The translations under genes were made by a program, and so were the position numbers. From a virus, in IMG/VR virus record IMGVR_UViG_3300047470_000395, positions 61,781 through 125,780 of that record: DNA of 64,000 nt; one strand, written 5' to 3'. Shown here piece by piece: positions 10,443 to 54,826 of this stretch (its first letter is position 1; every line of letters starts with the position of its first letter). The notes under the pieces were generated by a model, which saw nothing but the letters and a program-made list of their open reading frames with translations, was not told the DNA's origin and ran no database searches.

Positions 10443-10778
10443 GGACCATGGGGCCCGCCGGCCCTCCACCTGGCGGGTACCATCTGCAACGAGGTGGCCG
10501 TACTGCCGCCGCGAATACGCGTCTGAGACTCCGGTCAGGTCTATGGGCTGTGACACGCGTTGCTCGTAAGAGCAGGGTGTTCCTCTCGCCCGTGGTCGAC
10601 CTGGCCATCATGGGGCCGACCAACCGGGTGCGCGCAGAGCGCTCGGGGCCGGGGAGTGGTTGCTCCTACGAAGATCCGGCACACGCTATTCGCGACCGTA
10701 CGGTCACCTCACCTGTTTCAGCAGGACCACCAGGGCCCGAGAGCACGGGCCCCACCCGAAGCGGAGGAACACACGCCC

Positions 10779-11600
10779 ATGAGCAACGCGCAGAACGTCG
10801 CCGCCGAGATCGGATACCTGTCCCGGATGGGCGACGACGCGTTCATGGACACCGCCGTTGCCTACGTCATGGGGGACACCGACCCGCGCGTCCCCCGGGC
10901 CATCCAGGGCGCGGCACTCGGATCGCCTCAGCTCGCACCCCGCACTCTCGACGCCCTCGAGACGGCCCTGCGCCGCGCACGGCAGTACAACCCTCTCCAG
11001 GAGGGCGAGACCAAGCGGCAGCAGCAGGCCCGCATCGCGCCGTGGCGGGCGAGGATCCAGGCCGCGACAGGCCCGCTCCAGGACGTCGTCGACGACCTGG
11101 CCCACGAGCACGCGAAGCAGTTGGCCGCTCTCGACGACGACTCGTTTACCGACCGGTTCACCGACTTCATCCTCGGCGAGCCCGCCCCCGCGCCGACTTC
11201 CCAGCGGATCGAGGCGCTCGGCTTCCGATCACACAGAGTGGCTAAGCGGGCGGCGGAAATCTGCCGCCTGATGAACGAGGACCCGGGCCAGTTCCTGCCC
11301 GAGCCCGCGCCGGACGAGAGCCGCACCGCGCGGCAGAAGCGGGTCGAGGAGTTCCGCCGGCGCGTGGAGGCCGAGGCCGCGTTCCTGCGGTACGGCGCCC
11401 AGTACGCGGAGGCGCGCCAGGGCCGGATGCCTAGCGAACCGAACCACCGGCTGCAGGCGCTCAAGCTCCTCGGCAAGGCCCACCCCCAGGAGCTGCTCGA
11501 GCTCCTCCGCCAGGTCCGCGGCGAGGCCCGCGCCACCAAGCAGGACGCGCGCCGCGATGCCAGGGACAGCCGGCGCGCGGCCCAGTCCGGCGCGCGCTGA
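10779..11600 (+). CDS. Hypothetical helical protein
   Basis: ATG 10779 follows an AGAGCA hairpin and GGAGG; typical codon bias. Confidence 0.7.
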   Translation: MSNAQNVAAEIGYLSRMGDDAFMDTAVAYVMGDTDPRVPRAIQGAALGSPQLAPRTLDALETALRRARQYNPLQEGETKRQQQARIAPWRARIQAATGPLQDVVDDLAHEHAKQLAALDDDSFTDRFTDFILGEPAPAPTSQRIEALGFRSHRVAKRAAEICRLMNEDPGQFLPEPAPDESRTARQKRVEEFRRRVEAEAAFLRYGAQYAEARQGRMPSEPNHRLQALKLLGKAHPQELLELLRQVRGEARATKQDARRDARDSRRAAQSGAR

Positions 11601-12330
11601 GGCGCGCTCCCGGCCGACCGCTCCACTTTCAGGGCGCGCCCGATGGCGCGCCCTTCTCCATGTCCGGGCGCGCTTGGGAACCGCGCCGCGCGCGGGAACG
11701 GCGCGGTCCTCGGCGCGCGCCCGGCCGGTCGGCGCGCGGCGCGCCACCTTCCGCGCCGATAGGCGCGCGTCCTCGAGCAGCCCAGCGGCGCGCCTGATCG
11801 CGCGCCGTTCCAGAGCCCGCGCGGAGCTCTCCCGGGGCCGCGCTCGAGGGGCGCGCCACGGCCAGGCGCGCGGCGCGCCATCGGAAATGTGCAGGTCAGA
11901 GTGGCGCGCCCTGGCGCGCCTGCTGTGGCGCGCGTGCGCGCGGTGTCCATGGCGCGGGCGCGCGGCGCGGCCGGATCGGGCGCGCGCGCGATCGGAGGGT
12001 GGGCGCGCGGCGCGGCGCGGGCCTGGCGCGCGCGCACTGGATCGGCGCGCTTGGGCGCGCGCCTGATGGCGCGCCTGGATCGGCGCGCGGCGCGGTCGGG
12101 ATAGCGCGCGCTCTTTCCCAGGGCGCGCCTGGGCGCGGGTGGATCGGCGCGCTTGGGGAACGGCGCGGGCGCGCCCACCGGCCGCGCCTGGAGGGAGGCG
12201 CGCCATTCCTGGGCGCGCGCTTCGGGGAGGCGCGGCGCGGCGCGCGGGCGCGCCTCGAGGTGATGTGACGTGACGAGAGAGGGGGAGCAGCGCGCACCGT
12301 AGAAGCGCGCCCGAGGGGGCCGGGCGCGCG
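11570..12330. repeat. Non-coding GGCGCG/GCGCGC array
   Basis: About 50 CGCG-core units by manual count between two convergent genes. Confidence 0.85.
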
Positions 12331-12345
12331 TCACGTCACGTCACT

Positions 12346-14067
12346 TCACTGCCCGACGGGCGCGCCCTCGAAGTACGGCGCGAACCGCTTAGCGAGCTTC
12401 GGGTCGACCGGCGGAGCCTTCCGGTAGTAGGCGGCGAGCTCCGTCTCTCCTGCCGCCTCGAGGTACTCGACGAGTGCCGGGCGGTGGCCCAGCACGTAGT
12501 TCCGCAGCTCGGGCAGCTCCGGGTCTCCGAGCTCGGAGACCGGCCCCAGGTGCTCACCCTTAGTCAGCATCAAGAGCCGGGCCTGAACCTCCGCCTCCTC
12601 GTACAGGGCCTTGAATGCGAGCTCCTCGCCCCTGTTTCTCCGGGAGGCCGGGCGCGCGGCGGGGGCGGCCTGGGGCTCCTCGGCCTGGCTGGTCTCCTCC
12701 GGGGACTCGCCGGTCGGGGGCTCCTCGTCCTCCGGGTCCGGCGGCGGGGGCGCGGAGTCGTACTCGGCCGGCGGCTCCGGCTCCTCGTGGGCCTGGTGCT
12801 CGCGGGCCTCCTCCGGCTGGGGGTCCTGCGGGGCCGGGCCCGTGCTCGGTGCCTGCTGGGTCGGCTGGCTCCCCTGCCCGGCGGCGGCCGCCTCCGCCTC
12901 CTTCTTCTTGGCCCGCTCCTTGACTGCGGTCAGGGCGCGGGTGATCAGGGCGTCGGCGTTCATCTCCCCCCACAGCTTCGTGCGGGTGGGAATCCGCTCG
13001 AGGGTCCGCTTGCCCCACGTCTCGCGGATGTCGACCAGGCACGCCTCCGGGTCGGTCTGGTCGTTGAGCGCCTTGTGTACGAGGCTGACGACCTCCTGCC
13101 CGGTGAGCTCGGGCGACTGGGGCGCCTGCTGCTGGGGCTGGGCTCCCTGCTGCTGGGGCTGGTTCTGGCGCTGCTGCTGGTTCTGGCGCTGCTGATTCCC
13201 GCGCTGCTGCTCCTGGCGCTGCTCCTGTGCCTGCTCGGCGAGGTACGCCTCCGGCCGGGCCTCGGTGACCTGCCGGGCCGGGGCAGCGTCTTCGAAGCCC
13301 ATGCGGCGGAGCAGAGCGTCGATGCTGAAATTCTCGAACCGCTCGCTCTGGCCGGGCGTGACCTCCCAGTGCAGGGTGCGGACGCCAGTCAGGTACGCCT
13401 CCCCGAGGGCGTGGAGTTCGACGATGGCGTCGACGGCGCCCGGCAGGTTCTTCTCCGTCTTGATCTTCCGGGTCTTGTCCCGGGTCGGCTTGTCGTTCTC
13501 GAAGGCGGTGACGACTTCCTGGCGGGCGAGTAGGAGGGTCGGGCCGGAGTGCCTGCGGAGGTGCCACAGGATCTCGCCCCACCGGTCCTTCGCCCGGTTC
13601 CACAGGTCGTGTCCGACGGTGACGGGGAGGTCGAGGTTCGGGCTGCGGCGGTGGTTGTCCTTCGCGTTCTTCTCTGCACGCCACCGGGCATACAGGGCCT
13701 GTTCGTCGCTGAGCATGTCCCACAGGACCGTCACGTTGTCGAGCACGATCATGTTCCGCTTGCCTTCGACTGCGGGCGGCTGCGCGACGGCCCAGCGGAC
13801 GGCGTCGAGGATGTCCTGGTAGGTGCCATCGTGGGTCACGATCTCGTAGTTGGCCCCGGGGATCCGGCCGTAGTAGTCGGCCGTGCCCTCGGAGCCGCCG
13901 ATCTCGATCCAGAAGGTCATCCCGACCAACTCGGACGCGGTGCCCTCAGCCGCAAGGCGGCTCTTGCCGGTCTTCTCCGGGCCCGCGAGGAGAATCATCG
14001 GCGGGTTGGGGAGGCAAGTCGGCTTCCGGGACGTGCGTGCGCGCTGAGGCGTAGTGATACCAGGCAT
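12346..14067 (-). CDS. AAA-family ATPase (AAA_24/Sak4-like) with Q- and P/E-rich linkers
   Basis: Walker A GPEKTGKS, Walker B IVLDN; ATG 14067 after SD GAGGA. Confidence 0.75.
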   Translation of the reverse strand: MPGITTPQRARTSRKPTCLPNPPMILLAGPEKTGKSRLAAEGTASELVGMTFWIEIGGSEGTADYYGRIPGANYEIVTHDGTYQDILDAVRWAVAQPPAVEGKRNMIVLDNVTVLWDMLSDEQALYARWRAEKNAKDNHRRSPNLDLPVTVGHDLWNRAKDRWGEILWHLRRHSGPTLLLARQEVVTAFENDKPTRDKTRKIKTEKNLPGAVDAIVELHALGEAYLTGVRTLHWEVTPGQSERFENFSIDALLRRMGFEDAAPARQVTEARPEAYLAEQAQEQRQEQQRGNQQRQNQQQRQNQPQQQGAQPQQQAPQSPELTGQEVVSLVHKALNDQTDPEACLVDIRETWGKRTLERIPTRTKLWGEMNADALITRALTAVKERAKKKEAEAAAAGQGSQPTQQAPSTGPAPQDPQPEEAREHQAHEEPEPPAEYDSAPPPPDPEDEEPPTGESPEETSQAEEPQAAPAARPASRRNRGEELAFKALYEEAEVQARLLMLTKGEHLGPVSELGDPELPELRNYVLGHRPALVEYLEAAGETELAAYYRKAPPVDPKLAKRFAPYFEGAPVGQ

Positions 14068-14186
14068 CTGGGTGTTCCTCGCTTCGTGGTTCCCCGGGTT
14101 GCTCTCCCGCGGAGGATGCAACGGCAGAGGCGTTAACCTCTCGCCGTTGCCATCGGCTTACTATTCTACCCGCCTGGTCGGGTAGA

Positions 14187-16895: not shown

Positions 16896-16906
16896 CGGGG
16901 AGCTCC

Positions 16907-18836: not shown

Positions 18837-18984
18837 CTCGGTGTTCCTCTCTTTCCCCGGACGCCTGGCCCAGGGTTCTGGTCCTCCCGGGCTGGTGTTC
18901 GGGGCGCGTCACCTTGGGGTACGTCGCCGGCCGATTTTTGTTACACCTAGGCCCAGGTAGCTGGGTTGCTCTCCCAACTGAGCC

Positions 18985-19004
18985 GAATAGTACACCCAGG
19001 GCAA
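18985..19004 (-). promoter_or_regulatory. Conserved promoter-like box TTGCCCTGGGTGTACTATTC
   Basis: One of 9 copies; upstream of the replication operon. Confidence 0.7.
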
Positions 19005-25000: not shown

Positions 25001-25085
25001 TTGCCCTGGGCTTACTGTAATCTCGCCGTTGCAGGCGAGCGTCGCGGAGAGCACCGCGGCGAGCGCCAGACCTGAAGAGAAGGAG
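25001..25085 (+). promoter_or_regulatory. Promoter-box variant plus AGAGCA hairpin leader
   Basis: TTGCCCTGGGCTTACTGT, then CGTCGCGG-AGAGCA-CCGCGGCG, then SD AAGGAG. Confidence 0.65.
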
Positions 25086-25092
25086 CACCCCC

Positions 25093-25356
25093 GTGATGAC
25101 GTCGACGCCCGCGGTTGACCAGCCGTCCCACATCGACATGGCCCTGATGCGGTTCCCCCACCAGCAGTGGATCCCGGCGCCGGCCGCGGCCACGCACGTG
25201 GAGAACGTGGGGCTGCCTCGTGAAATCCTGCGGCTGGTGATCCGTACCGGCAAACGCCGTGGTGTCCTACGTATCAAGCGCGTGCCCGACCACGTCGGCT
25301 TCTACGTGATGAGGGTCTCCAAGATGCGCCCCGATGAGGTCACGGCCACGGCCTGA
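25093..25356 (+). CDS. Small basic hypothetical protein
   Basis: SD AAGGAG; preceded by both conserved motifs. Confidence 0.65.
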   Translation: MMTSTPAVDQPSHIDMALMRFPHQQWIPAPAAATHVENVGLPREILRLVIRTGKRRGVLRIKRVPDHVGFYVMRVSKMRPDEVTATA

Positions 25357-38231: not shown

Positions 38232-38684
38232 TCAGAACAGGCCGGACTGTCCGGCGGCCTCGAGCGCCAGGCGCTCCGTCTCGGAGGCCTGCTCGGCCTC
38301 CTGGCGGCGGATCTGCGCCACGAGCGGGGCCTGTCGCTGCGCCTCGGCCGTCTTGCGGGCCTGGAGCTCCGCGGACGTCGCCCAGCGCGTCATCACCTCG
38401 TGGTCGGCGAGCTCGGGCACGTCGCCCAGCGCGGTGCACTTGACGTGCGGGCTCTCGAGACGGCCGGTGACCTCGGCCAGGGTCCGGAGCCAGTTCGGGC
38501 CGTACGCGCCGACGATGACGACGAGCGTCCCGGCCGCGTCGAAGCCCTGCCGCAGGGAGAACCCGTCGGCCTCGTGCCGGTCGGGCCCGCCGGCCTTCTG
38601 CTCGTAGACGTCAAGGCCGAGGTCGACCAGTCCGCCCTCGACGAGATGGCGGCGGATCGTCGACGTGCGCGTGGCTCGAGACAT
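38232..38684 (-). CDS. Hypothetical protein ending QSGLF
   Basis: Preceded by AGAGCA hairpin and SD. Confidence 0.75.
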   Translation of the reverse strand: MSRATRTSTIRRHLVEGGLVDLGLDVYEQKAGGPDRHEADGFSLRQGFDAAGTLVVIVGAYGPNWLRTLAEVTGRLESPHVKCTALGDVPELADHEVMTRWATSAELQARKTAEAQRQAPLVAQIRRQEAEQASETERLALEAAGQSGLF

Positions 38685-38818
38685 GGGTGTCCTCGCTTCG
38701 TGGTCTGGGCCGGTGCTCTCCGGCCCGGGGCGGTGCGCCCTGCTCCTGCGCCGGACGGGCCGGTTCAGGGGCGGAGCGCACCGCCCGCCGTGGGGTGGCG
38801 GGCGGTGCTGCGGGCGGG

Positions 38819-39145
38819 CTACGCCAGGGCGACGGTGACCAGGACGTCCGCGAAGTACGTGTCGGGGTGCTCGCCGTCGTTGATCTCGAGGCCCTGGAAC
38901 TCCCAGTCCGCGGCGATGTCCGCGGCGAGCTCGGCGCGGCCCCTGCGCAGCGCGTGACCGTGGCTCACGGCCTCCACCGAGAACCAGTCGAGACCGGTGT
39001 CACGCAGCGACACCCACGCGGCGTTGGAGTTGTCGCCGACGCGGACGACCTCCGGCAGGATGCGGCGGATCTCGAACCCGGCCACCGGGCGGTCGGTGTA
39101 GACGACGGTGAAGCGGCGCAGCGTCTTGTGCAGGGTCAGGGACAT
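38819..39145 (-). CDS. Hypothetical protein
   Basis: Preceded by AGAGCA hairpin and SD, ATG 39145. Confidence 0.7.
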   Translation of the reverse strand: MSLTLHKTLRRFTVVYTDRPVAGFEIRRILPEVVRVGDNSNAAWVSLRDTGLDWFSVEAVSHGHALRRGRAELAADIAADWEFQGLEINDGEHPDTYFADVLVTVALA

Positions 39146-39234
39146 GGGGTTCCTCACTTCGTGGTGGGGGGCCGGTGCTCTCCGGCCCCGGGGGTGGGGC
39201 GCCCACGGCGGGCGCCCCTGGGGAGCTGCTGCGG

Positions 39235-40128
39235 TCAGGCGGCGAGCAGAAGCTGGGGGTCGTCCGGCAGGCTGTTGAGGAGCGCGTTCCGCCATGCGAT
39301 GGCGTACTTCGGGCAGTTGCCGCAGTGCACGTGCTTGCCGACACAGCCGGGCATCGGGGCCCGGTTCACCGCGTTGTAGGACCAGGCCATGGAGTCGGAG
39401 CTGTAGAGCTGGTGGGCGACGCGGCGGAGACCGGTCTTCTTGAAGCCGAAGCCGTGCAGGCGGATGCCCATGGACCAGACGGTTTCGATGATCCGGGCGG
39501 CCTCGTCGGTCTGCTGCAGGCGGCACACGGAGCCGATGCCGACGACGGGTTCGAGCGTGAGGTCGACGCCCACCTGGTCGTACAGGTCGATGCACCGCAG
39601 GTAGTCGTCGAGCGTGCGGCCCTGGATGACCGGCATCCACGGCAGCTCGGAGTCGAGCGTCATCAGGTTCAGGTACGACGCGACGGTCTTGATCTGGTGG
39701 TCGGCGATCGTGAGGCCGGTCTTCGCGAGGATCTCGTCCTCGCACATCCAGTCCTGAATGGCACACATGTCCATCAGGCCGATCTCGTCGTGGTACCGGC
39801 GCGCCGCCGCGGCGTACGTGTACGGCGAGACCGTCCAACGGCCGTGCTGCGACAGCTCCGTGAACCCGCGGGAGTCGAGCATCCACGGGGTGACGGCGCG
39901 CGGCAGGGTCTTACGGTCGGCCAGGCGCCCGTGGGAGACGCACAGCGGGATGCAGTCGTTGCCGAACTCTTCGCGGGCGAGCCAAGACGGCTGGTGCGTG
40001 CCCAGGTACGTCACGCGGTCGAAGTCGGCGAACCAACGGCGGTCGGCGTAGACGGGCGCGGGGCGCTTTGCCTGGGGCTGCGCATTCGCCGCCGGGGCGG
40101 GAATGTCGAAGAGTGCGGCATTGGCCAT
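39235..40128 (-). CDS. TGT/DpdA-like guanine transglycosylase-fold protein
   Basis: LDSRGF, QDWMCE, PVIQG, GIGSVC, LHGFG, SSDSMAW, plus a Cys/His cluster, in TGT motif order. Confidence 0.7.
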   Translation of the reverse strand: MANAALFDIPAPAANAQPQAKRPAPVYADRRWFADFDRVTYLGTHQPSWLAREEFGNDCIPLCVSHGRLADRKTLPRAVTPWMLDSRGFTELSQHGRWTVSPYTYAAAARRYHDEIGLMDMCAIQDWMCEDEILAKTGLTIADHQIKTVASYLNLMTLDSELPWMPVIQGRTLDDYLRCIDLYDQVGVDLTLEPVVGIGSVCRLQQTDEAARIIETVWSMGIRLHGFGFKKTGLRRVAHQLYSSDSMAWSYNAVNRAPMPGCVGKHVHCGNCPKYAIAWRNALLNSLPDDPQLLLAA

Positions 40129-40197
40129 GGTGTTCCTCGCTTCGTGGTCCGTTGGCGGTGCTCTCCGCCAACACGAGGAATAGTACACCCTGGGCAA
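40129..40197 (-). promoter_or_regulatory. Full leader module (promoter box, AGAGCA hairpin, ACCACGAA, SD)
   Basis: TTGCCCAGGGTGTACTATTC-CTCGT-GTTGGCGG AGAGCA CCGCCAAC-GGACCACGAAGCGAGGA. Confidence 0.8.
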
Positions 40198-43620: not shown

Positions 43621-44037
43621 TCAGACGACGTCGGTGGCGGTGAAGTGGTCGGCCAGGCCGCGACCGGCGCGCTCGGCCTCCAGGCGCACGGCGGCGTCGT
43701 ACACGGCCTCGATCACCGCGCGGGTGTCGTGGTCGACGACGTACCACTTGCCGCCACGGCCGCCCGTCCAGAAGTCGAGCGCGTACCGGGTCGCCAGGGT
43801 GGCGGGCTCCAGGTACTCGACGACGCGGATGGTCTGGCCCCACGCGCCGTCGGCGGCACGGATGCCGGACTCGCGCAGGACCTTGCCGCCCGCGATGTTG
43901 AAGGCGTACGCCTCGTGCTGCTCGCGGGGGACGGTGGTCGTGTAGATCCGGTGGTGCATGACGGCGCGGGGCTCGCCGTACTGCTCGGTCAGCTCCCACC
44001 AGGGCTTCATGGCGGCCTCTACGGGGGCAACGCTCAT
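43621..44037 (-). CDS. Hypothetical protein
   Basis: Follows a full leader module. Confidence 0.7.
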   Translation of the reverse strand: MSVAPVEAAMKPWWELTEQYGEPRAVMHHRIYTTTVPREQHEAYAFNIAGGKVLRESGIRAADGAWGQTIRVVEYLEPATLATRYALDFWTGGRGGKWYVVDHDTRAVIEAVYDAAVRLEAERAGRGLADHFTATDVV

Positions 44038-44107
44038 AGGGGTGTTCCTCCTTCGTGGTCTGGCGGGTGCTCTCCCGCCAACACAGAGAATAGTACACCC
44101 TGGGCAA
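44038..44107 (-). promoter_or_regulatory. Full leader module
   Basis: Box 44088-44107; hairpin TGGCGGG AGAGCA CCCGCCA; ACCACGAAGGAGGA. Confidence 0.8.
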
Positions 44108-44212: not shown

Positions 44213-45184
44213 CTACGCGGCCGGGGCGTACCGCCGGCGCTCGGCGTCCACCGACGGGATGACGACGCGAGTGATCCCGTCGGCGAACCGCTCCGCCATC
44301 GGCCGCGGCTTCGGCCACGGGGCACGGCGGGGCTTCACCGGCATGGGCGGGGGCACCACCAGCGGCGGCCGGGCCACCGACACGGGGAACAAGCCCTCCT
44401 GTCCGTCCTGCTCGGCCCGCACGGCGTCCACCTCGTCGGCCTCCCGCAGCACCGCGGCGTGAGCCTGCTCGAACAGCTCCACCCGCTCCGCCTCCAGGCG
44501 CTCCGCCTCCATCCGGGCGGCCTCCGCACGGGCCAGGCGCTCCGCCTCGGCGACGACCGCGGGCACCATCCGCGCCCGGAGGGCCGTCACCGCGCTGTCG
44601 TCGGCCTGCTCGAGGTCCACACCGCCCACGGCGGCCCACACCTCCTCGGCGACGGCCCCGTGCTGCTCCCACAGCGGCCGGGAGCTGCTCCGCGCCTCCA
44701 CGGGCCGCGTACGGGCCCCCAGACGCTGCGCCAGGGCGTGCAGGACGTCCGCGCGGAACTCCCGGACCCGCACGCGCATCGTCGACGCGTCCTCGTACTC
44801 CAGGAACGCCTCGGCGGCCGCGGAGCGCTTCCACACGCCGAACACACGGACCGCCCGGGTCGCCAGGGCCTCCACCTCGTCCAGGACCCGCTCGAGGGCC
44901 ACCAGGTACCCGGCGACCGCCCGCGCGTCGCCCTGCACCGTCAGCCGCCGGTCGTCCAGGCCGCCGTACCGCTCATCGGTCCCGCACATCTCCTTGTAGT
45001 ACGACCACCGGGGGTTCAGCTTGAAGGGGGTCGCCGCCTCCACCCCGTGGACGTCGGCCAGGGCCCACGCCACGTCGTGGTGCTGCTTCGCCCGACGCTT
45101 CGACGCCGCGGGGAACGCCAGGTCGACGGTGAACCGGCCCGGGGCCGACTCGTACGGGCGGGGGAACTCCACATGCGCGCTCAT
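44213..45184 (-). CDS. Hypothetical protein
   Basis: Preceded by AGAGCA hairpin; ATG 45184. Confidence 0.7.
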   Translation of the reverse strand: MSAHVEFPRPYESAPGRFTVDLAFPAASKRRAKQHHDVAWALADVHGVEAATPFKLNPRWSYYKEMCGTDERYGGLDDRRLTVQGDARAVAGYLVALERVLDEVEALATRAVRVFGVWKRSAAAEAFLEYEDASTMRVRVREFRADVLHALAQRLGARTRPVEARSSSRPLWEQHGAVAEEVWAAVGGVDLEQADDSAVTALRARMVPAVVAEAERLARAEAARMEAERLEAERVELFEQAHAAVLREADEVDAVRAEQDGQEGLFPVSVARPPLVVPPPMPVKPRRAPWPKPRPMAERFADGITRVVIPSVDAERRRYAPAA

Positions 45185-45269
45185 GCGCTCTCTCTTTCGT
45201 GGTGCGGCGGTGCTCTCCGCCGCGGGGGGAACCGGCCCGCGAACACGGACCGGAGACAAGGGGGACGAC

Positions 45270-45817: not shown

Positions 45818-47671
45818 TCAGGCGGACGCGTACGTCACGGGGACGTCGACGCGGAACATGGCGGCGAGCACCTTGCGCGCGTTGGCGGCGGCGTCCTCGC
45901 GGCCGTCCCGCTTGCGGAAGTTGACGACGATCGGCGGGTGCGCCGGGCAGTGCCCGAGTGCCGTGTCGACTCCGGCGGTGATCCGGGCGGTGACGTTCCA
46001 TCCGCTGCGGGCGTCGCTGCGGCAGACGACGCGGACGGTGGGCGTGCCGGTCTCGATGGCCTGCAGCTCCTCCGGGGCGGCGTCGGCGGCGTTGTAGGCC
46101 TGGGCGGCGGTGCGGATGGTGTCGGCGGTGGCGGGCATGTCCGTGCCGTGGATCCGGTGGGCGTGCGGGGCGATGGCCAGGATCACCGCGCGGGCCTGCT
46201 CGACGGCGGCGCGCGCCTGGTCGTGGGCGGCGTTGCGGGCGGGGAGGGTGCTGGCGGTGCGCAGCGACTCCCACGCGTCCTCGACGGCGCCGCGCGCCTC
46301 GACGATCGCCAGGTGCTGCTCGCCGGGCGCGTGCTTGCCCAGGGTGAGCAGGTGGCGGCCGAGGTCCTCGAGGTCGCGGGGCGCGGAGACGGACACGGTG
46401 GCCTCGTAGGCGGCCAGCGCGGCGTACAGGGTCCCGGCGGCGGGGGCGGGGTCCTCGGCGGCGACGGTGCCGAACACGGCGTCCAGGGAGGCGCGGGTAA
46501 CCATCAGGTGCATGTCCGGCGGGAAGGTGCTGCCGGTCGTGCTCTCGTCGTGGCTGCGGAACGTCCAGGTGGGACGGACCCAGGGCGCGCCGGGGCCGAC
46601 GAACGCCGTGACGGCGGAGACGGTGCGGGTCTCGCCCATGTGCGCGTGGATCACGTCCATGCCGGGGCGGATCATGTCGGCGCGGACGGGGAGCGCCGAA
46701 CCGTCGGCGATGGCCTGGAAGGTCTCGGCGTAGTACGCGGCCAGCTCCGCGTCGATGTCGCCGGTCAGTTCGGCGTCCGTGGGGCGCTCCGTCGGGGTGG
46801 GGAACGTGTCGCCGGGGGTGGCGGGGCGCAGGTACACGGTCCGGCCGTCGCGGTAGACGATGTGGGCGGTCGACTTGCACGCGGACATCCGCTTGACGGT
46901 GCGCTTCACCAGCGGCTGCATCATCGCGGCGTTGATCTCGTCCAGGGCCTGGCGGGTCGGGATGATCTCGGTGGGGCCGTCGTTGACGATCCGGACGTGC
47001 TGGCGCTCCTCGGCGGGCGCGGCGGCGGGGGCCGGCTGCGGGACGTACCGGCGGTTCTCCACGACGATGGCGCGGTCGGCGGGGTCCTGGTGGAACGGCT
47101 GCCGCTTGAAGCGCAGGTTCGACACGATCTTGCGGACGTGGGCGGCGGGGATGCCGTCGTGCTTGCGCTCCTCGCCGACGTACACCGCGTGCGGCGCGTC
47201 GACGACGTCGTCGGTGGTGGGCAGCGCCTCCAGCTTCGCGGGGGGCTTGCTCCACAGGCGGATGGACACCGGCTCGACACCGCGCAGGCGCATCGGGGAC
47301 AGGCGGTTGGACAGGCGCACGGAGATCGCGTCGGTGAGCTGCTTATCCCAGCCGCGCGGGTCGCGGTCGCCGCCCTCGACGATCTCGTCACGCAGGGCGT
47401 GCACCTCGTCGGTGGTCATGTGGTGGAGCTGCTCGCGGATGGCCCAGTACCGCTCATCCGGCGTGAAGATGACGCGGACGCGCTCCGACTCGGCGTCCCG
47501 GCGGATGATGCGGCGGACGGTCTCCTTGTTCGCCTTGCCCTGCTCCTTGTCGGCGTCGCGGCTCATCACGGCGTCCACCAGGTCGTGGGTGACGACGCGG
47601 CCGTTGTGCAGCGTGGCAGCGATGAAGACCTGAAGCGCCATTCCTTCGGCGCGGTCGGTAGCAGTCAGCAT
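45818..47671 (-). CDS. Large mosaic hypothetical protein, first gene of the left arm
   Basis: ATG 47671 after a hairpin variant and GGAGG. Confidence 0.75.
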   Translation of the reverse strand: MLTATDRAEGMALQVFIAATLHNGRVVTHDLVDAVMSRDADKEQGKANKETVRRIIRRDAESERVRVIFTPDERYWAIREQLHHMTTDEVHALRDEIVEGGDRDPRGWDKQLTDAISVRLSNRLSPMRLRGVEPVSIRLWSKPPAKLEALPTTDDVVDAPHAVYVGEERKHDGIPAAHVRKIVSNLRFKRQPFHQDPADRAIVVENRRYVPQPAPAAAPAEERQHVRIVNDGPTEIIPTRQALDEINAAMMQPLVKRTVKRMSACKSTAHIVYRDGRTVYLRPATPGDTFPTPTERPTDAELTGDIDAELAAYYAETFQAIADGSALPVRADMIRPGMDVIHAHMGETRTVSAVTAFVGPGAPWVRPTWTFRSHDESTTGSTFPPDMHLMVTRASLDAVFGTVAAEDPAPAAGTLYAALAAYEATVSVSAPRDLEDLGRHLLTLGKHAPGEQHLAIVEARGAVEDAWESLRTASTLPARNAAHDQARAAVEQARAVILAIAPHAHRIHGTDMPATADTIRTAAQAYNAADAAPEELQAIETGTPTVRVVCRSDARSGWNVTARITAGVDTALGHCPAHPPIVVNFRKRDGREDAAANARKVLAAMFRVDVPVTYASA

Positions 47672-47946
47672 CTGGGGTTCCTCCGGTTCGTGGTCTGGCC
47701 GGGGATGCTCGCCCCGGCCCCGCCTTAGTGGCGTCCGCTGACCGTACCGCCCTCCCCTCGAATACGCAACCCAGGGCAATCGGAGAGTGTGAAGAGCTCG
47801 AGAGTTCGTGGCGCTCACCTGGGTATCTCGAGGAATCTCAACGCGGGGGGTTGCGTCAAATTGCCTTGGGTGTACTGTTCTTCTCAGCGGTTCACACCGC
47901 AGCCCCGGAGAGCACCGGGGCGAGACCACGAAACGAGGAACACCCG
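47672..47946. promoter_or_regulatory. Divergent control region with back-to-back leader modules
   Basis: Boxes at 47760-47779(-) and 47861-47880(+); hairpins at 47697-47719(-) and 47902-47921(+). Confidence 0.8.
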
Positions 47947-48282
47947 ATGATCACTAAGGCCACCGACACCCCCCGCGCCACCGTCACCCTGGAGAAGGAC
48001 CCCACCGCCATCGTCTGGTTCCTGGCCGTCGTCACCGACATGGCCACCCCCGCCGCCCGGGTCCACGAACTGATCGTCACCTTCGAGGCCTCGTACGACT
48101 CCCAGGTGGAGGCGGCGCACCGCCTGGCCGAGACGATCGACGGCGCCACCGTGGAGATCCTGTTCGCCGGTGACCGGTCCGAGGCGTACGGCGTGGCCCG
48201 CACCGGCCAGGACTTCGACGGGATGCTCGACCTGTGGCTCGCCCAGCAGCCCCCGGCCGTGTGCATCGAACAGATCGTCTGA
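47947..48282 (+). CDS. Hypothetical acidic protein
   Basis: Follows a leader module. Confidence 0.75.
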   Translation: MITKATDTPRATVTLEKDPTAIVWFLAVVTDMATPAARVHELIVTFEASYDSQVEAAHRLAETIDGATVEILFAGDRSEAYGVARTGQDFDGMLDLWLAQQPPAVCIEQIV

Positions 48283-48429
48283 CCTCCCCCGCACCCGCAC
48301 CGCCCGCCATCCCCCCTGGCGGGCGGTGCGCCCCGCCCCCGGGGCCGGCTGTCTGGCCGGAACGGGCGCAGGGCGCACCGCCCCACACCGTCCCGGAGAG
48401 CACCGGGGCCCGGACCACGAAGGAACACC

Positions 48430-48975
48430 ATGCGCAGCTTCCGCCTCTCGGCCGTCCTCACCCGCCGCCCCCGCCCGGTCGTGATCGCGCTCGCCGGACT
48501 CGCCGCCACCGTCGCCGCCCTGGTCGCCACCTACGGCGGCACCTACAGCGGCGCCAACGCGGGCGCCACCCTCGGCCCGGCCGGTTGCTTCGTCGGCATC
48601 GAGTGGCGCGGTGAGCCGGGCGTGTACGGCTCCTGCACCGGCGCCGACACGGACGCCGCGCCGCAGCCGACCCCCGCCCCGGCCCCGGTCGCCCCGGCCG
48701 CCGACGACGTCGTCACCGCGTACAACGCCGGGTGGAAGGCGGGCGTCGACGCCCTCGGCAACGGGACCACGCCGACGTACCCGGACGTCGTCGGCGACGC
48801 GAACGACCCGGGCACCGTCGCGTGGGCGGACGGCTGGATCGACGGCCAGGCGGACGCCCTCGGCGACGACAACCGCGACGGCCGGATCGAAGAGGACGAG
48901 TCCGGGTGGGACTGCCACCGCATGGGCAACCGCGTGTGCGGCGCGCAGCGCGACGCAAGCCACACCAGCCGCTGA
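48430..48975 (+). CDS. Secreted or membrane protein with DxNxDG loop
   Basis: N-terminal hydrophobic helix; DDNRDGRIEEDESGWDC…CG. Confidence 0.75.
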   Translation: MRSFRLSAVLTRRPRPVVIALAGLAATVAALVATYGGTYSGANAGATLGPAGCFVGIEWRGEPGVYGSCTGADTDAAPQPTPAPAPVAPAADDVVTAYNAGWKAGVDALGNGTTPTYPDVVGDANDPGTVAWADGWIDGQADALGDDNRDGRIEEDESGWDCHRMGNRVCGAQRDASHTSR

Positions 48976-50275: not shown

Positions 50276-50346
50276 TTGCCCAGGGTGTACTATTCAGGGG
50301 TTGGCGGAGAGCACCGCCGACAGACCACGAACTGAGGGAGCACCCC
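50276..50346 (+). promoter_or_regulatory. Full leader module
   Basis: Box 50276-50295; GTTGGCGG AGAGCA CCGCCGAC; ACCACGAA; GAGGGAG. Confidence 0.8.
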
Positions 50347-50724
50347 ATGGCATCTGCCCGCACCGTCCTCCGCAACCGCGTCCGCGACAACCGCGCCGCC
50401 TCCCGCGCCCGCCGCGCCACGGCCCGCGCCGCCCGCGCCGTCCGCGTCTCCGCCCGCTCCATCACCACGCACGTCATCGCCACCGGCGCCGACACCGCCA
50501 CCGTGAAGGGCGTCGTCAAGGCGCTGCAGGGCGTCGCCAAGACCGCCCGCGCCAACGGCCTCAAGGGCAAGCGGGTCCGCATCCGCCGCACCGCCCAGGG
50601 CTTCAAGCGTCACGCCGTCACCGCCTACCGGTACACCCGCGCCCAGGTCGCGCAGATCGCCGCCGCCTACAAGCCGCGCAAGGCCGAGTACAAGGCCATC
50701 CGCGCCGCGCTGATCGCCGCCTGA
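50347..50724 (+). CDS. Highly basic Arg/Lys/Ala-rich protein
   Basis: Very few acidic residues; strong codon bias. Confidence 0.75.
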   Translation: MASARTVLRNRVRDNRAASRARRATARAARAVRVSARSITTHVIATGADTATVKGVVKALQGVAKTARANGLKGKRVRIRRTAQGFKRHAVTAYRYTRAQVAQIAAAYKPRKAEYKAIRAALIAA

Positions 50725-50804
50725 CCCCACCCCTGAACCGCCGGGGCGCGGCCCTCCCCCGCCGCGCCCCGGCCCCCCGCTCGACACACCGGAGACGAGA
50801 CACC

Positions 50805-51314: not shown

Positions 51315-51414
51315 CCGCCCGTCCGCCGGGCGGGGGCGTCACAGGATGCGCCCGCCCGGCGTACTACCCGACGAGAGCACGTCGGGCCCGACCACACACC
51401 GGAGGAACACCCTC

Positions 51415-51642
51415 GTGGACGACATCGCCCGGGACCCGGGCAACGACTCCTCTGCGGAGCGCTGCGCCGCCTACGCCCGCCCGGCCTGGGAGCTGTACGC
51501 CGCCGCGCACGAAGGCGTGACCCTCGCCGACCTGATCAGCGACCTTCTGCACCTCGCCGACCGGCTGCCCGACGAGCAGGACAAGGGCGCTGACGCCATC
51601 CTCGCCCGCGCCCTGCGCGACTACGACGCCGAGCGCCCGTAG
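51415..51642 (+). CDS. Small hypothetical protein
   Basis: Hairpin plus GGAGG; DLISDLLHLAD motif. Confidence 0.7.
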   Translation: MDDIARDPGNDSSAERCAAYARPAWELYAAAHEGVTLADLISDLLHLADRLPDEQDKGADAILARALRDYDAERP

Positions 51643-51775
51643 AGCCGTCGCGCCCCGGGGCCCGGACGTACGAGCCGCCCCGGGGCGCGACGCAAGCCCC
51701 ACCCGAACGACCCAATGCCCCGGCCGGAGAGCACCGCGCCGGAACCGCCACCACGAAGAGAAGGAACACCCGACA

Positions 51776-52606
51776 GTGACCGTGCCCGCAGTCGCCCACG
51801 CGACCACCGCCGCCCCGCTCGCCGCCCTCCTGCCCGCCCGCCGCCGCAAGCCCTGGACCGTCGGCCCCGCCCCGTACGGCATCCGCAACCACGCCGCCAC
51901 CTCCCGGATCACCGACGGCCGCCGCGCCCTGCTCGTCGTCGAGGAGGGGAACCGGGTGGAGCTGTACGCCGAGCGCCCCGACATGTTCCCCGTCACCCCC
52001 GACGCCGTCGCCGACTCCACCGACCCGGCCTCCGTCGCCACGCTCGCCGCGCGCGCCCTGCGCTGGATCCTGCCCAGCCTCGACGCCGACGCCACCCACG
52101 CCATCGCCAAAGAGGGGGGATGGCAGCAGGTCGAGCACCACAAGGGCACCGTCCTGACGGAGTTCGGGTTCCACCTGATCGACCACGGCGCCCACCCCCG
52201 CAGCGTGATGCGGACCGACGGGCCCGGCCTGACGTGGACGGCCAACAGTGGCGCCGAGTGGGGCGTGTGGACGTACGGGGTCGCCGCGAACTTCCACCTG
52301 ACCTACGAGGGCCCCGTGAGCGGCCTGTACGGCGCGCTGCCGGTCCTGCTGCCCCCGCTGGGCGCCCACACCTCCACGGACGCCGGTAGCCCGTTCACGC
52401 GCCACCTGACCGACCGGTTCCCGCAGCTCCACCCGGTCGACGCCGACGAGGTCGAGTTCGGCGGCTACCAGGACCTGCACGGCTGGATCGCGCTTCCCTC
52501 CCGCGCCGAGCTGGGCGACCCCGTCGACGACGACACCCCCGTCTGCGCCCAGGTCGGCCCCGTGGGCGTCGACTTCCTGCTCGCCGCCGCCGCGCACCTG
52601 TCCTGA
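51776..52606 (+). CDS. Hypothetical protein (paralog A)
   Basis: Hairpin plus SD; resembles the next gene. Confidence 0.75.
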   Translation: MTVPAVAHATTAAPLAALLPARRRKPWTVGPAPYGIRNHAATSRITDGRRALLVVEEGNRVELYAERPDMFPVTPDAVADSTDPASVATLAARALRWILPSLDADATHAIAKEGGWQQVEHHKGTVLTEFGFHLIDHGAHPRSVMRTDGPGLTWTANSGAEWGVWTYGVAANFHLTYEGPVSGLYGALPVLLPPLGAHTSTDAGSPFTRHLTDRFPQLHPVDADEVEFGGYQDLHGWIALPSRAELGDPVDDDTPVCAQVGPVGVDFLLAAAAHLS

Positions 52607-52674
52607 CCCTCCCTCGCCCGGCCGCGCCCCCGCCCCTCCGCCGGGGGCGCGGCCCCCTCGAAAGGCCCCACGAC

Positions 52675-53514
52675 ATGAGCACCGTCACCGCCCCCGCCCG
52701 TCCCACCTGCCGCGCCCAGACCCTCGCCGAGCACGTCGCCGCTCTCCTGCCGCAGCGAGCCGGCGTTCCGTGGACCGTCGAGCCGTACACCGCCTGGTGG
52801 ACCGTCCGGTACCCCGCCGCCCGCCTGGTGCAGGGCAGGCGCGCCCTGGTCCTGGTGGCGCGCACCTGGGACACCGAGATCGGGTGGCAGCTCCCCGGCC
52901 GTGAGCCGACCCGCCCGGATCTCCGGATCGACCGCACGGCCCCGGCCGCCGTCGCCCGCGACGTGCTGCGCCTGGTGCTGCCCGTCGTCGACGACGAAGC
53001 CGCCCACGCCCTCGAGGACGGCGCCCGTGCCCGCCGCGGAGCGCTCGTCGAGATCGGCACCGCGATGCGCGCCCAGGGAGCTGCCACGTACGAGCGGGCC
53101 GGTCTCCTGGTGAACACCGCGTGCATCGTGTGGTCCTCGAGCGGGCTCCGCTACTCGGCCACCCTGCACGGCACCAACCCCGTGGCGTCCGTCCAGATCC
53201 AGGGCCCGGTGCGCGCCCTCGAGCGGGCCGTCTCGCACTTCCTGCCCGCGGCCGCGTCCGGCCGCCCGATCATCCCGGCCGGGATCCGCGGCCGCCTCGA
53301 GCGGCGCATGGCCAACGTCCTCGCCCGGCATGGCCACGTCGAGCAGCTCGACGGCAAGGGCCTCGCGTTCGGCGAGAAGTCCGGCCCGTACGGGCACGTC
53401 GCCCCCGCCCCCGACTCGGCCGCCCGCGCCCACGACAACACGCTCGCGTCCGTCGACGTCCACGGCGTCGGCGTCGACTTCCTGCTCTCCCTCGCCCCGC
53501 ACCTGGCGCGATGA
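52675..53514 (+). CDS. Hypothetical protein (paralog B)
   Basis: Shares AALLPxR…PWTV, GPV and VGVDFLL…HL with the previous gene. Confidence 0.75.
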   Translation: MSTVTAPARPTCRAQTLAEHVAALLPQRAGVPWTVEPYTAWWTVRYPAARLVQGRRALVLVARTWDTEIGWQLPGREPTRPDLRIDRTAPAAVARDVLRLVLPVVDDEAAHALEDGARARRGALVEIGTAMRAQGAATYERAGLLVNTACIVWSSSGLRYSATLHGTNPVASVQIQGPVRALERAVSHFLPAAASGRPIIPAGIRGRLERRMANVLARHGHVEQLDGKGLAFGEKSGPYGHVAPAPDSAARAHDNTLASVDVHGVGVDFLLSLAPHLAR

Positions 53515-53570
53515 CTTGCCGCGCCCCGGGGGCCGGATCCCGGGGCGCGCCCCTTCCGGAAGGACACCCT

Positions 53571-54017
53571 GTGACCACCGCCCCGCTGTCCCCGATCGCC
53601 GACCTGTTCGCCGCCGAGGACAAGGCCCGCCAGGTCGCCCGCGACATGCTGCCGCTCCTCGCCGCGACGCTCCGCGCCCAGTTCCCGACCGGCGCCCACC
53701 TCGCCCTGTACCGCGGCCCGGACGGAGAGCTGAGCTACCACTCCGTGCGCGATGCCCGGGGTACGGCCGTCTTCACGTTCGCCGAGTGCTGGTGGAAGGC
53801 TGGCCCGTTCCCGCGCCCGGTCCCGGCCGACGTCGCCGCCCTGTGGGGCGACCACGACCCCACCTCGCCCGCCGTGGTGCTGTCGATGATCCAGCAGGTC
53901 GACCAACACGGCGTCCTGTCGTTCCTCCCGGCCGCGGCCATGTGGCCGGGCGAGGAGGACCTGGACCTGACGCCCGTCGGCCTCCCGCTCGCCGAGCCGG
54001 AGCCGACGCGCCCCTAA
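53571..54017 (+). CDS. Hypothetical protein
   Basis: SD GGAAGGA. Confidence 0.65.
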   Translation: MTTAPLSPIADLFAAEDKARQVARDMLPLLAATLRAQFPTGAHLALYRGPDGELSYHSVRDARGTAVFTFAECWWKAGPFPRPVPADVAALWGDHDPTSPAVVLSMIQQVDQHGVLSFLPAAAMWPGEEDLDLTPVGLPLAEPEPTRP

Positions 54018-54118
54018 ACCGCCCGCGGGCGGGCCCCTGCAACAGCTCGGGGCCCGCCCGCGTTCCTTGCTGCGCCTGGCCTTCCCGGGGCCGCCGCCCG
54101 CATCGAGGAGATCCCCAA

Positions 54119-54676
54119 GTGAGCCGCCACTCCCGCACCAAGCCCAACCGGCACGACCGCCAGGCCCGGCACGCCGGGTTCGACGCGCTGCTGCCGCGCC
54201 TCAAGCGGGGCACGCTCACCCGGGAGGAGGCCGCCCTCCTGGCCGCGTACGTCCTCGAGGAGCGGCGCCTGGGCGAGAAGACCCGCCGGTCCCTGACCGC
54301 CACGACCCGGAGCCTCGCCGCGCACCGGGAGGCCGCCGACGCCGCGATACGGGAGGCCGAGGAGACGGGCGAGCTGCACCGTGTCGCCGTCGCCGAGGCA
54401 CTCGACGCGCCGTCCGACAGTCCGTGGACCGCACTCGTCGGCCGCGCCCGGGACGCGCAGCACTGGGCCGGGCGTGCCCGGAGCGACGTCGGGCAGGCCG
54501 AGCAGCTCCGCGAGCAGTTGCGCCGGTCGGAGGAGGCGCGGGCAACGCTGCGGGGGCGTCTGGCCGAAGCCCTGGGGCGCGGCCGGCTGCGGGTCGAGTG
54601 CCTGACGGGGGACCCGGTCGCCCTGGGCCGGATCGTCGCCGACAGTCTCCGGCGCTCACCGCAGCATCTCGGCTGA
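54119..54676 (+). CDS. Hypothetical coiled-coil protein
   Basis: SD GAGGAG. Confidence 0.65.
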   Translation: MSRHSRTKPNRHDRQARHAGFDALLPRLKRGTLTREEAALLAAYVLEERRLGEKTRRSLTATTRSLAAHREAADAAIREAEETGELHRVAVAEALDAPSDSPWTALVGRARDAQHWAGRARSDVGQAEQLREQLRRSEEARATLRGRLAEALGRGRLRVECLTGDPVALGRIVADSLRRSPQHLG

Positions 54677-54751
54677 GACACCCCAGGAACCCCAGGAACG
54701 CGCAGCCCATGGCAACGGGCTGCGCGTTCCTGCTGTTCCCACACACCACCA

Positions 54752-54826
54752 TTGCCCAGGGTGTACTATTCGGCGTGTTGGTGGAGAGCGCCGCCGACGA
54801 GGACCACGAACGAAGAGGAACACCAG
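54752..54826 (+). promoter_or_regulatory. Full leader module
   Basis: Box 54752-54771; GTTGGTGG AGAGCG CCGCCGAC; ACCACGAA; GAGGA. Confidence 0.8.

Follow-up and report, generated by a model that had tools for sequence, protein, structure and literature searches.

The SAS motifs of the cluster K mycobacteriophages are short repeats at phage gene starts, with the 13-bp consensus GGGATAGGAGCCC (up to two mismatches) positioned 3-8 bp upstream of start codons. In the cited sections of the two reports that describe them, there are 11-19 SAS copies per genome, confined to non-structural genes and in one orientation, with a consensus that varies by sub-lineage; about half have an inverted repeat upstream, and the ESAS consists of paired, imperfect 17-bp inverted repeats that have a consensus and are separated by a variable spacer of 4-13 bp (PMC3203893, PMC12699233). 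The function of both motifs was open in 2011, and is given as still open in the 2025 account (PMC3203893, PMC12699233). Here, a repeated leader motif is described in a 64,000-nucleotide stretch of DNA (the window, ~70% G+C) that represents bases 61,781-125,780 of the 125,780-bp virus record IMGVR_UViG_3300047470_000395 (G000, with an estimated completeness of 97%). On the strength of sequence comparison, the motif is probably a cis-acting, post-transcriptional mRNA leader cassette of ~50 nucleotides that precedes ~19 unrelated non-structural genes and would act at the translation-initiation region and be read in trans.

A first-pass annotation of the window had claimed 16 copies of a leader hairpin, all of which were found at the positions and on the strands where it had placed them (individual copies are cited below by those positions). 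A covariance model, R1, encompassing the hairpin, the box that follows it, and the Shine-Dalgarno (SD) and start region (51 positions, 7 pairs), was run on the window with filters off; it scored the 16 copies at 25.7-56.1 bits, with the next-best match at 17.1 bits among 93 matches at E<=10, the E-values being rough as the model was quickly calibrated. The start codon of an open reading frame (ORF) of at least 75 amino acids (aa) is found at the 3' end of the match in 15 of 16 copies, an adjacency that is partly by construction because R1 contains the SD and start region, although a search pattern free of the SD gives the same picture. The weakest member, copy 18959-, lacks the box and lies ~97 nt upstream of ORF 18231-18836. 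As had been claimed, every one of the 16 copies is on the sense strand of the gene that follows it, through four switches of strand. The exact box sequence ACCACGAA occurs 12 times in the window, each time inside a leader, and AGAGCA occurs 28 times versus an expected 18.7 +/- 3.7, with 14 of these occurrences being leader loops. Two GAGC-loop hairpins within coding sequence are probably chance matches, namely an 11-bp stem with an AGAGCG loop at 55404-55431 (-), antisense in the methylase gene, and a 5-bp stem with an AGAGCA loop at 41377-41392 (-) that scores 17.1 bits; both are without box or SD.

The leader hairpin is an RNA-type helix with an invariant loop. For the 16 window copies, 86.0% of stem cells are paired, as compared to 57.4 +/- 3.6% in shuffled sets (0 of 500 as high), with two-sided changes at seven of eight pairs, and for a larger set of 83 copies (77 distinct) the value is 88.7% versus 62.9 +/- 1.6% (again 0 of 500), with two-sided changes at six of seven pairs, both shuffle tests being inflated by kinship among the copies. 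The larger set is drawn from five genomes: G000, three related virus records, and Streptomyces phage Gilgamesh. Sliding one partner relative to the other reduces pairing to 37-59% in the window set and to 28-57% in the larger set. Covariation of the stem, a check that the first-pass annotation had called for, is thus strong in both sets. When counted outwards from the loop, the 77 distinct copies represent 51 stem forms, with arms of 6-10 bp in 72 of the 77, whereas GAGC is present in all 77 loops (AGAGCA in 51, AGAGCAA in 14, CGAGCAT in 5, AGAGCG in 4, AGAGCAG in 2, and AGAGCTA in 1). It had also been claimed that stem mismatches were mostly G-U on the sense strand, and this is borne out by 48 G-U or U-G pairs versus 3 A-C or C-A pairs in the same 77 copies. 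Such an asymmetry indicates that selection for the helix acts on the sense strand alone, that is, as RNA, unlike a site in duplex DNA.

Comparison between genomes points the same way. In 73 pairings, some of them paralogous, that each set a leader of G000 against the upstream sequence matching it best in another genome, 85 stem positions have changed, of which 73 are still paired (47 by double and 26 by single changes) and 12 are broken. By our own reading of the alignments, at least seven of the double changes are at syntenic, orthologous leaders. For instance, GACG/CGTC is replaced by GGCG/CGCC in the orthologous leader at 51367+, upstream of a 75-aa ORF, and GGCGG/CCGCC is replaced by GGTGG/CCACC in the leader that precedes the DpdA gene. 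Both the minimum free energy and the centroid fold contain the hairpin in all 16 window copies, with the box and SD for the most part left unpaired in the centroids. Taken one at a time, the copies have modest folding z-scores of -3.4 to +0.7, unremarkable for a sequence of 70% G+C, and it is therefore covariation, rather than folding energy, that carries the case.

The position of the motif relative to the gene start is similarly constrained. In 57 of 81 copies, the distance from the start of the loop to the start codon is 36-40 nt, and in 52 of 72 copies the CGAA of the box ends 12-16 nt ahead of that codon. The spacer between SD and start codon reads A(A/G)CACC or AACCCC in 69% of 13 leader genes as opposed to 5% of 111 other genes, a count in which gene starts are approximate. 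Given these fixed distances and the leader-specific spacer, the conserved unit is the whole ~50-nt leader, consisting of a stem of free sequence, GAGC loop, spacer, box, SD, second spacer and start codon. In the independently annotated genome of Gilgamesh, 14 of 16 strong matches abut annotated start codons. In the case of the leader at Gilgamesh 118217-118268, the annotated start of a DNA methylase gene (118223) falls within the leader hairpin, with the leader implying a start ~45 nt downstream, and the leader at 9007-9054 lies upstream of the annotated FtsK-like gene at a distance of 138 nt, so that the annotation may have overlooked a short ORF or a longer leader. The proteins encoded downstream of the leaders of one genome have no similarity to one another, and repetition of the leader is therefore not a by-product of gene duplication. 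Moreover, leaders are 74-86% identical where the proteins that follow them are only 35-38% identical or have no detectable match.

The element that carries the leaders is best described as a member of a temperate phage-plasmid family of Streptomyces, based on the annotation of Gilgamesh and on the replicons where similar DNA is found. Parts of the window are ~81% identical to the DNA of Gilgamesh (MN234216, 129,136 bp), whose record lists ParA- and ParB-like proteins, two tyrosine integrases, an FtsK-like translocase and a sigma factor; similar DNA is also present on three Streptomyces plasmids that are complete and circular (125,380, 126,621 and 129,653 bp), and as separate ~125-kb contigs in several Streptomyces assemblies. 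The whole G000 record has 19 leader copies. The three beyond the window are all in the left arm, and none of the 19 falls within 17,116-72,510 of the record, where the structural genes are found. Twelve relatives have 9-19 copies each, and more than 200 model matches were tallied over the 13 elements. Matches number 19, 14, 17 and 9 in virus records G001, G002, G003 and G004 (the last a 29-kb fragment), and 17, 12 and 16 in circular plasmids W02, W03 and W04, all at E<=0.001. At E<=0.01, Gilgamesh has 20 matches, 16 of them above 25 bits, and the ~125-kb element contigs of four whole genomes have 16, 13, 15 and 16.

These four Streptomyces genomes (7.4-9.9 Mb) provide a measure of how specific the motif is to the element. 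When the model was applied to the best 150 of each genome's ~15,000 first-look candidates, 60 of 61 matches were on the ~125-kb contig and one, of 28.7 bits, was elsewhere, while a fifth genome, reached by a chance pattern match, gave no model match. An exhaustive search of the same 33.7 Mb with the SD-free pattern (GAGAGCA, 6-24 nt, CCACGAA) placed 34 of 42 matches on the four element contigs, which total ~0.5 Mb, corresponding to a density ~280 times higher on the elements; the eight matches off the elements are without an evident stem by eye, and a reversed control pattern gave one match. Equal frequency in host chromosomes, a possibility raised by the first-pass annotation, is not what either search found. 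In looser pattern scans of viral and genome collections, the matches listed were mostly chance singles, and confirmation by the model was limited to contigs of related elements. The leader motif is restricted to the element. The same annotation had suggested a comparison with Rfam, and no Rfam 15 family reaches its gathering score anywhere in the window; at E<=5, five weak matches were found in 38000-56000, none of them on a leader. A description of the motif was not found in a literature search outside of which lay subscription journals, phagesdb pages and supplementary files, and text searches found no paper on phage Gilgamesh.

Virus record G005 (125,903 bp), a more distant relative, shares homologous structural genes with the element (32-81% aa identity) and is missing nearly all of the non-structural arm genes. 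It has no leader copy and no over-represented leader loop, in a loop scan that recovers AGAGCA in positive controls. The arms and the leader system thus seem to have been exchanged as a block.

Within the family, the box varies by lineage. The form ACCACGAA is found in 13 of 19 leaders in G000, where 13 of the 14 exact occurrences are inside leaders, and in 14 of 19 in G001. By our own count, 9 of 17 leaders in G003 have ACCAACGAA or ACCAGCGAA, that is, ACCA[A/G]CGAA, and 11 of 12 in plasmid W03 and 15 of 16 in plasmid W04 have CCCGAA followed by (C)GAAGGAAC; ACCACGAA is kept at four G003 copies and is absent from W03 and W04. The leaders compared are largely orthologous, as judged by their upstream modules and stems, and many dispersed sites must therefore have changed the CC-CGAA spacing (0, 1 or 2 nt) in parallel. 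Within each genome the stems stay diverse and the GAGC loop constant, while the box differs by lineage. Such concerted change is suggestive of a trans-acting reader that co-evolves with the box, which would be a simpler account than gene conversion.

The individual leaders illustrate how much the stem can vary around these fixed parts. The leftmost copy (10730..10776, +; R1 34.7 bits) has the stem GGGCCCG/CGGGCCC, an AGAGCA loop, the box variant CACCCGAA and an SD, and precedes a 273-aa ORF (10779-11600). The copy at 14067..14115 (-; 42.9 bits) has an AGAGCAA loop and box ACCACGAA, and is situated before a gene for a 573-aa AAA_24-like ATPase (12346-14067; Pfam); its fold has one stem mismatch or bulge. 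The atypical copy at 18933..18982 (-; 25.7 bits), before the 201-aa ORF 18231-18836, combines a promoter box with the stem AGTTGGG/CCCAGCT and an AGAGCAA loop, without ACCACGAA. At 25038..25093 (+; 36.4 bits), the stem CGTCGCGG/CCGCGGCG and AGAGCA loop are followed by the degenerate box AGACCTGAA and an 87-aa ORF, with a diverged promoter box at 25001-25020. Loop AGAGCA and box ACCACGAA are common to the next five copies, all on the minus strand. The first (38681..38729; 54.8 bits) has the stem GGGCCGG/CCGGCCC, is without a promoter box, and precedes a 150-aa ORF, and the second (39142..39191; 54.4 bits), with the stem GGGGCCGG/CCGGCCCC, precedes a 108-aa ORF and is found behind a G+C-rich hairpin that has no T-run. 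The best-scoring copy (40125..40174; 56.1 bits), with the stem TGTTGGCGG/CCGCCAACG, is directly behind a promoter box (40178-40197) and in front of a DpdA-family gene (39235-40128; Pfam DpdA, 6.8e-80), and the copy at 44036..44083 (45.7 bits), with the stem TTGGCGGG/CCCGCCAG, is also directly behind a promoter box (44088-44107) and precedes a 138-aa ORF. In the copy at 45180..45226 (37.7 bits), before a 323-aa ORF, the box abuts the stem GCGGCGG/CCGCCGC.

Two divergent copies follow. The copy at 47671..47721 (-; 42.2 bits) has the stem GGCCGGGG/CCCCGGCC, a CGAGCAT loop and box ACCACGAA, and precedes a 617-aa ORF, with a diverged promoter box at 47760-47779; its partner at 47899..47948 (+; 53.3 bits) has the stem GCCCCGG/CCGGGGC, an AGAGCA loop and box ACCACGAA, and precedes a 111-aa ORF, with a promoter box at 47861-47880. 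The remaining copies are on the plus strand. AGAGCA and ACCACGAA are found at 48387..48437 (46.9 bits; stem GTCCCGG/CCGGGGC with one U-G pair; before a 181-aa ORF), and at 50298..50347 (51.3 bits; stem GTTGGCGG/CCGCCGAC; before a 125-aa ORF), the latter directly behind a promoter box at 50276-50295. The copy at 51364..51414 (43.6 bits), before the 75-aa ORF, has the stem CCCGACG/CGTCGGG, an AGAGCA loop and the box variant ACCACACA, and the copy at 51718..51773 (33.9 bits), before a 276-aa ORF, is predicted to fold into a bulged stem, CCGGCCGG/CCGCGCCGG, with an AGAGCA loop, a 7-nt spacer and ACCACGAA. The last copy (54775..54826; 43.5 bits) has the stem TGTTGGTGG/CCGCCGACG with three U-G pairs, an AGAGCG loop and ACCACGAA; it is directly behind a promoter box (54752-54771) and precedes a C5 DNA methyltransferase gene (54827-56146; Pfam DNA_methylase, 1.6e-17). 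The loop variants named in the first-pass annotation are therefore all present (AGAGCG at 54777, AGAGCAA at 14091 and 18959, and CGAGCAT at 47697), and the two bulged stems that it reported correspond to a bulge or mismatch in 14091- and 51720+.

The annotation had further placed eight copies behind a promoter-like box, which agrees with six boxes within two mismatches of GGTGTACTATTC and diverged versions at 25040+ and 47697-. The six leader-linked boxes closely match TTGCC(C/T)(A/T)GGGTGTACT(A/G)TTC, and are represented by the 20-nt box TTGCCCTGGGTGTACTATTC at 18985..19004 (-), upstream of copy 18959-, and by boxes of the same type at 40178-40197 (-), 44088-44107 (-), 47861-47880 (+), 50276-50295 (+) and 54752-54771 (+). 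A seventh box of this type, at 61865-61884 (+), is without a GAGC-loop leader hairpin, and the seven sites give the contiguous 20-nt consensus TT(G/T)(C/A)C(C/T)nnGGTGTACT(A/G)TTC. At this seventh site (61865-61930, +), the box is followed by a different, larger hairpin (GTTGTGGCGGG...CCAGCCGCCGCAGC), which Gilgamesh, G001, G002 and G003 all retain at the corresponding position. The TTGCCC-like part of the box is only 6 nt from TACTAT, which is not sigma-70 spacing, and the version of the box in plasmids W03 and W04 is ...ATTGCTGTACTGTTC. The hairpin begins 3-5 nt past the box in 40151-, 44061-, 50300+ and 54777+, and in copy 18959- the 7-bp stem of the motif begins 7 nt past it.

Upstream of copies without a promoter box, other modules recur. 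For instance, GGGCGCAGGGCGCACCGCC is found upstream of two different box-less leaders (38730-38775, -, and 48345-48385, +), GGGGCGCGACGCAAGCC (51670-51715, +) is upstream of 51720+ and recurs in relatives, and a 10-bp hairpin with a GTCACAG-containing loop (51320-51362, +) is upstream of 51367+. A role as terminator, as processing site or as a second type of promoter is conceivable for these modules. None of the four terminator-like sites detected in 38000-56000 is a leader; leader stems are followed by the ACC...CGAA box and SD and not by a T-run, and the eight box-linked copies are downstream of a promoter-like sequence.

Few of the genes served by the leaders have a family match. Those that do encode the DpdA-type transglycosylase, the AAA_24-type ATPase and the C5 DNA methyltransferase (all by Pfam), as well as, in the left arm, the FtsK-like translocase; the 201-aa ORF 18231-18836 (-) has a weak match to Mu Gam-like proteins in PHROGs, and the remaining leader genes are orphans with no match in Pfam or PHROGs. 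The leader-bearing non-structural genes are probably early or establishment genes. Other family matches among the window proteins scanned (30 with Pfam, 20 with PHROGs) are a PAPS reductase, a DUF2637 protein, an ECF-type sigma factor, and a weak winged helix-turn-helix. The sigma factor gene, at 24156-24860 (-), has Sigma70_r2 (8.1e-20) and r4 (~1e-11) matches and is the orthologue of the sigma factor annotated in Gilgamesh. Genes of genome-protection type are found in or beside the set of leader genes, namely those for DpdA and a PAPS-reductase-domain protein (39235-42018, -), the C5 methyltransferase (54827-56146, +) and the weakly Gam-like protein (18231-18836, -).

How might such a leader function? 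The first-pass annotation had proposed a structured cis-regulatory element acting as RNA or as single-stranded DNA and read by an element-encoded factor. The proposal of a structured element is supported by the covariation. The G-U asymmetry favours RNA over duplex DNA, and RNA is favoured over single-stranded DNA by a strand that follows gene direction and by the fixed distance to the start codon. An element-encoded factor is supported indirectly, by a linear box that changes in concert within lineages next to stems that stay diverse. The process affected would then be translation, mRNA stability, or processing. The cassette comprises a hairpin of 6-10 bp and free sequence that presents the invariant GAGC in a loop of 6-7 nt; a short spacer; a box, single-stranded and rich in C and A, whose core is CC-N(0-2)-CGAA; and an AGGA-type SD with an A/C-rich spacer and the start codon. 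In promoter-linked copies the hairpin would be at, or a few nucleotides from, the 5' end of the message, and in others right behind upstream hairpins. There it may shield the mRNA from decay that depends on the 5' end and insulate the start region, with the G-poor box and spacer keeping the ribosome-binding site open. The GAGC loop and box could together serve as the address for a trans-acting factor, most likely an element-encoded protein, through which translation or stability would be switched for all members of the regulon together.

It is also conceivable that the leader is a passive expression cassette with no dedicated reader, in which the hairpin is a 5' stabiliser or insulator, the box and spacer keep the ribosome-binding site open, and the loop and box are kept for reasons intrinsic to the RNA or because a general part of the host machinery, for example the ribosome or an RNase, requires them. 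Hairpins at the 5' terminus do stabilise bacterial mRNAs, the geometry of the leader suits a start-region module, its single-stranded parts are A/C-rich, the SD is unpaired in centroid folds, and no RNA-binding protein was recognised among the window proteins scanned. We nevertheless consider a purely passive role unlikely, because a mere stabiliser needs no fixed loop and GAGC is retained in 77 of 77 copies on 51 stem forms, and because an unchanging host component does not predict a box that changes in concert by lineage. In addition, neither box nor loop has complementarity to the 16S rRNA of a carrier host, which also lacks a matching rRNA hairpin, and the motif is essentially absent from host chromosomes, so that no host regulon uses it. 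A host enzyme could act on the leader in another manner, if actinobacterial RNase E cut the single-stranded purine-C steps of the box to trim polycistronic transcripts or to time their decay. The mycobacterial enzyme, as characterised in the cited part of the study, cuts single-stranded RNA directly on the 5' side of cytidines, slightly favouring those that follow a purine, and often does so in 5' untranslated regions (PMC10641625), a specificity that favours this explanation. The box does have A|C steps in an unpaired stretch, and 8 of 16 copies are without a promoter box and behind other hairpins. However, extending the preference from mycobacteria to Streptomyces is a supposition, and so weak a context preference would leave the invariant GAGC loop and the lineage-specific box spacing unexplained; cleavage as the main role of the leader is quite improbable, although it is compatible with a leader that is read in trans.

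Two further explanations were weighed. The first is processive antitermination of the nut type, where hairpin and linear box would load a factor on RNA polymerase to read through the hairpins between cassettes. The order of hairpin and conserved linear box recalls boxB and boxA, and several copies are preceded by G+C-rich hairpins without T-runs. Polymerase loading, however, requires neither 16-19 sites per genome, nor a fixed 36-40 nt to the start codon, nor fusion to the SD; copies are found at promoter-first and internal genes alike, and the lambda boxA 8-mer has 13 one-mismatch matches versus 23.3 expected, none of them beside a leader. Antitermination is thus very improbable, and the least likely of the options named in the first-pass annotation. 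The second is an element that functions as DNA, either with the box as a stoperator-like repressor site on duplex DNA, or with the hairpin as a priming or binding signal in single-stranded DNA, for instance on the lagging-strand template. Oriented, intergenic, multi-copy sites are typical of the mycobacteriophage L5 stoperators too, G-T pairs could form in single-stranded DNA of the sense strand, and the element is a temperate one with plasmid-like features, Gilgamesh being annotated with ParA/ParB and integrases. Against this, a duplex site needs no covarying stem with wobble on one strand (48 versus 3), the distance to the start codon is fixed, and the orientation of the motif switches four times in 44 kb, always with the local gene, which fits transcription and not replication. 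The element also encodes an FtsK-like translocase, and translocases of this type go with transfer of double-stranded DNA in Streptomyces. A role as DNA therefore has very little probability.

A leader read in trans remains the preferred explanation, and several points weigh against it. The kinship that inflates the shuffle tests, and the scoring of only the best candidates in the whole-genome searches, lessen the force of the covariation and specificity figures. Placement of the hairpin at the 5' terminus assumes that TACTAT is a -10 element with transcription starting 6-8 nt later; no sigma-70 consensus promoter was detected in 38000-56000, and 20-40 nt separate promoter box and hairpin in 25040+, 47697- and 47902+. 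Conservation of the loop could reflect a structural or host-factor requirement rather than an element-encoded reader. The parallel change of the box could result from gene conversion among short cassettes instead of co-evolution with a reader, an argument countered by the diversity of the adjacent stems, which would be homogenised too. Finally, no RNA-binding domain, and hence no candidate reader, was found by Pfam on 30 and PHROGs on 20 window proteins. The comparison with G005 is of little help here, because a genome without nearly all of the non-structural genes makes gene content too coarse to single out a reader.

RNA partners of the leader were considered as well. Pairing with the 16S rRNA of a host whose genome carries a related element was rejected, as box and loop have no complementary site (at best 7 nt, including one wobble), as was rRNA mimicry, with no hairpin bearing a leader-type loop in the 16S, spacer or 23S sequences of that host. 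A kissing small RNA is without support, since no intergenic hairpin of G000 has a loop complementary to AGAGCA and only one of 14 exact boxes is outside leaders. Mimicry of tRNA was rejected as a general explanation, with no tRNA or transfer-messenger RNA found in the window by ARAGORN and with a stem-to-ACCA spacer that varies from 0 to 7 nt. Some leader stems do directly abut ACCA. Copy 18959- (18959-18990, -) reads GGCTCAGTTGGGAGAGCAACCCAGC and could fold as a D-arm-like or as a leader hairpin, its GCTCAGTTGGGAGAGCA resembling a tRNA D-arm.

A more specific proposal, put forward tentatively, is that the leaders might be operators of an element-encoded RNA-binding regulator that recognises the GAGC hexaloop on any stem together with the CC-N(0-2)-CGAA box. 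This regulator would switch ~19 early, establishment or anti-defence genes, including those for DpdA, the C5 methylase and the Gam-like protein, in a widespread family of ~125-kb Streptomyces phage-plasmids. If so, the three box spacings (0, 1 and 2 nt) would represent natural, orthogonal reader-operator pairs. The lineage-specific box variants also form a natural series that makes a search for the reader tractable.

To our knowledge, almost nothing is known of post-transcriptional control in Streptomyces phages and phage-plasmids. If the leader acts as proposed, it would be a new structured cis-regulatory RNA family, with covariation clear enough for deposition as an RNA family. The motif picks out a coherent group of non-structural genes, most of them orphans, and pinpoints start codons, as for the Gilgamesh methylase, and a compact leader for high-G+C hosts that insulates from context may be of use in engineering Streptomyces.

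Several known systems share individual features with the leader. The promoter-early stem-loop (PeSL) cassettes of T4-type phages are repeated modules of promoter and stem-loop between early genes, and are kept while the genes that they flank swap or diverge, much as leaders here are maintained next to diverged or unmatched proteins. However, half of the leader copies have no promoter box, the promoter-like 20-mer that precedes the other 8 of 16 is without a sigma-70 consensus, and the hairpin is downstream of the promoter, inside the leader, where its fusion to box and SD keeps a constant spacing to the start codon. Phage post-transcriptional regulators with translational operators are exemplified by T4 RegA, which acts on many early mRNAs, and by Mu Com, which acts on mom. 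As in these systems, unrelated and probably early mRNAs share a recognition element at the translation-initiation region, which would let one protein control them all, although the element here is a covarying hairpin plus box and not a linear AU-rich site. The stabiliser hairpins at the 5' terminus of the E. coli ompA leader and of early RNA from B. subtilis phage SP82 are similar in being stable, situated at the 5' end of their message or close to it, and ahead of an open ribosome-binding site, but are single cases without a conserved loop, whereas the leader hairpin recurs in many copies, with a loop core that does not vary and a box as its companion. The lambda nut site likewise pairs a small hairpin of sequence-specific loop with a linear box on nascent RNA, and differs in the order of its parts, in copy number, and in the absence of fusion to a start region, with no boxA consensus beside the leaders. 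With the L5 stoperators, orientation and intergenic position are compatible, whereas a wobble bias on one strand is not expected of a DNA site.

The likeness to the cluster K motifs, so far as the cited sections describe them, extends to copy number (12-19 leaders per complete element), to the restriction to non-structural genes, to a single orientation upstream of start codons with the ribosome-binding region included, and to a box that varies by lineage as the SAS consensus does by sub-lineage. Yet the SAS 13-mer GGGATAGGAGCCC has no match in the window at up to two mismatches, and the phage group, host genus and genome size are different. Conserved 17-bp arms around a variable spacer in the ESAS, as there described, also contrast with arms of 6-10 bp that have no consensus (51 stem forms) around a loop fixed at 6-7 nt in the leaders. 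On these grounds, the leader motif is not a member of the SAS/ESAS family, and shares with it a positional definition only. The leader appears to be new to Rfam 15 and to the literature searched, as a repeated, start-associated motif of actinobacteriophages with unusually clear evidence of acting as RNA, and it provides a second, structurally clearer example beside the SAS and ESAS motifs of cluster K.

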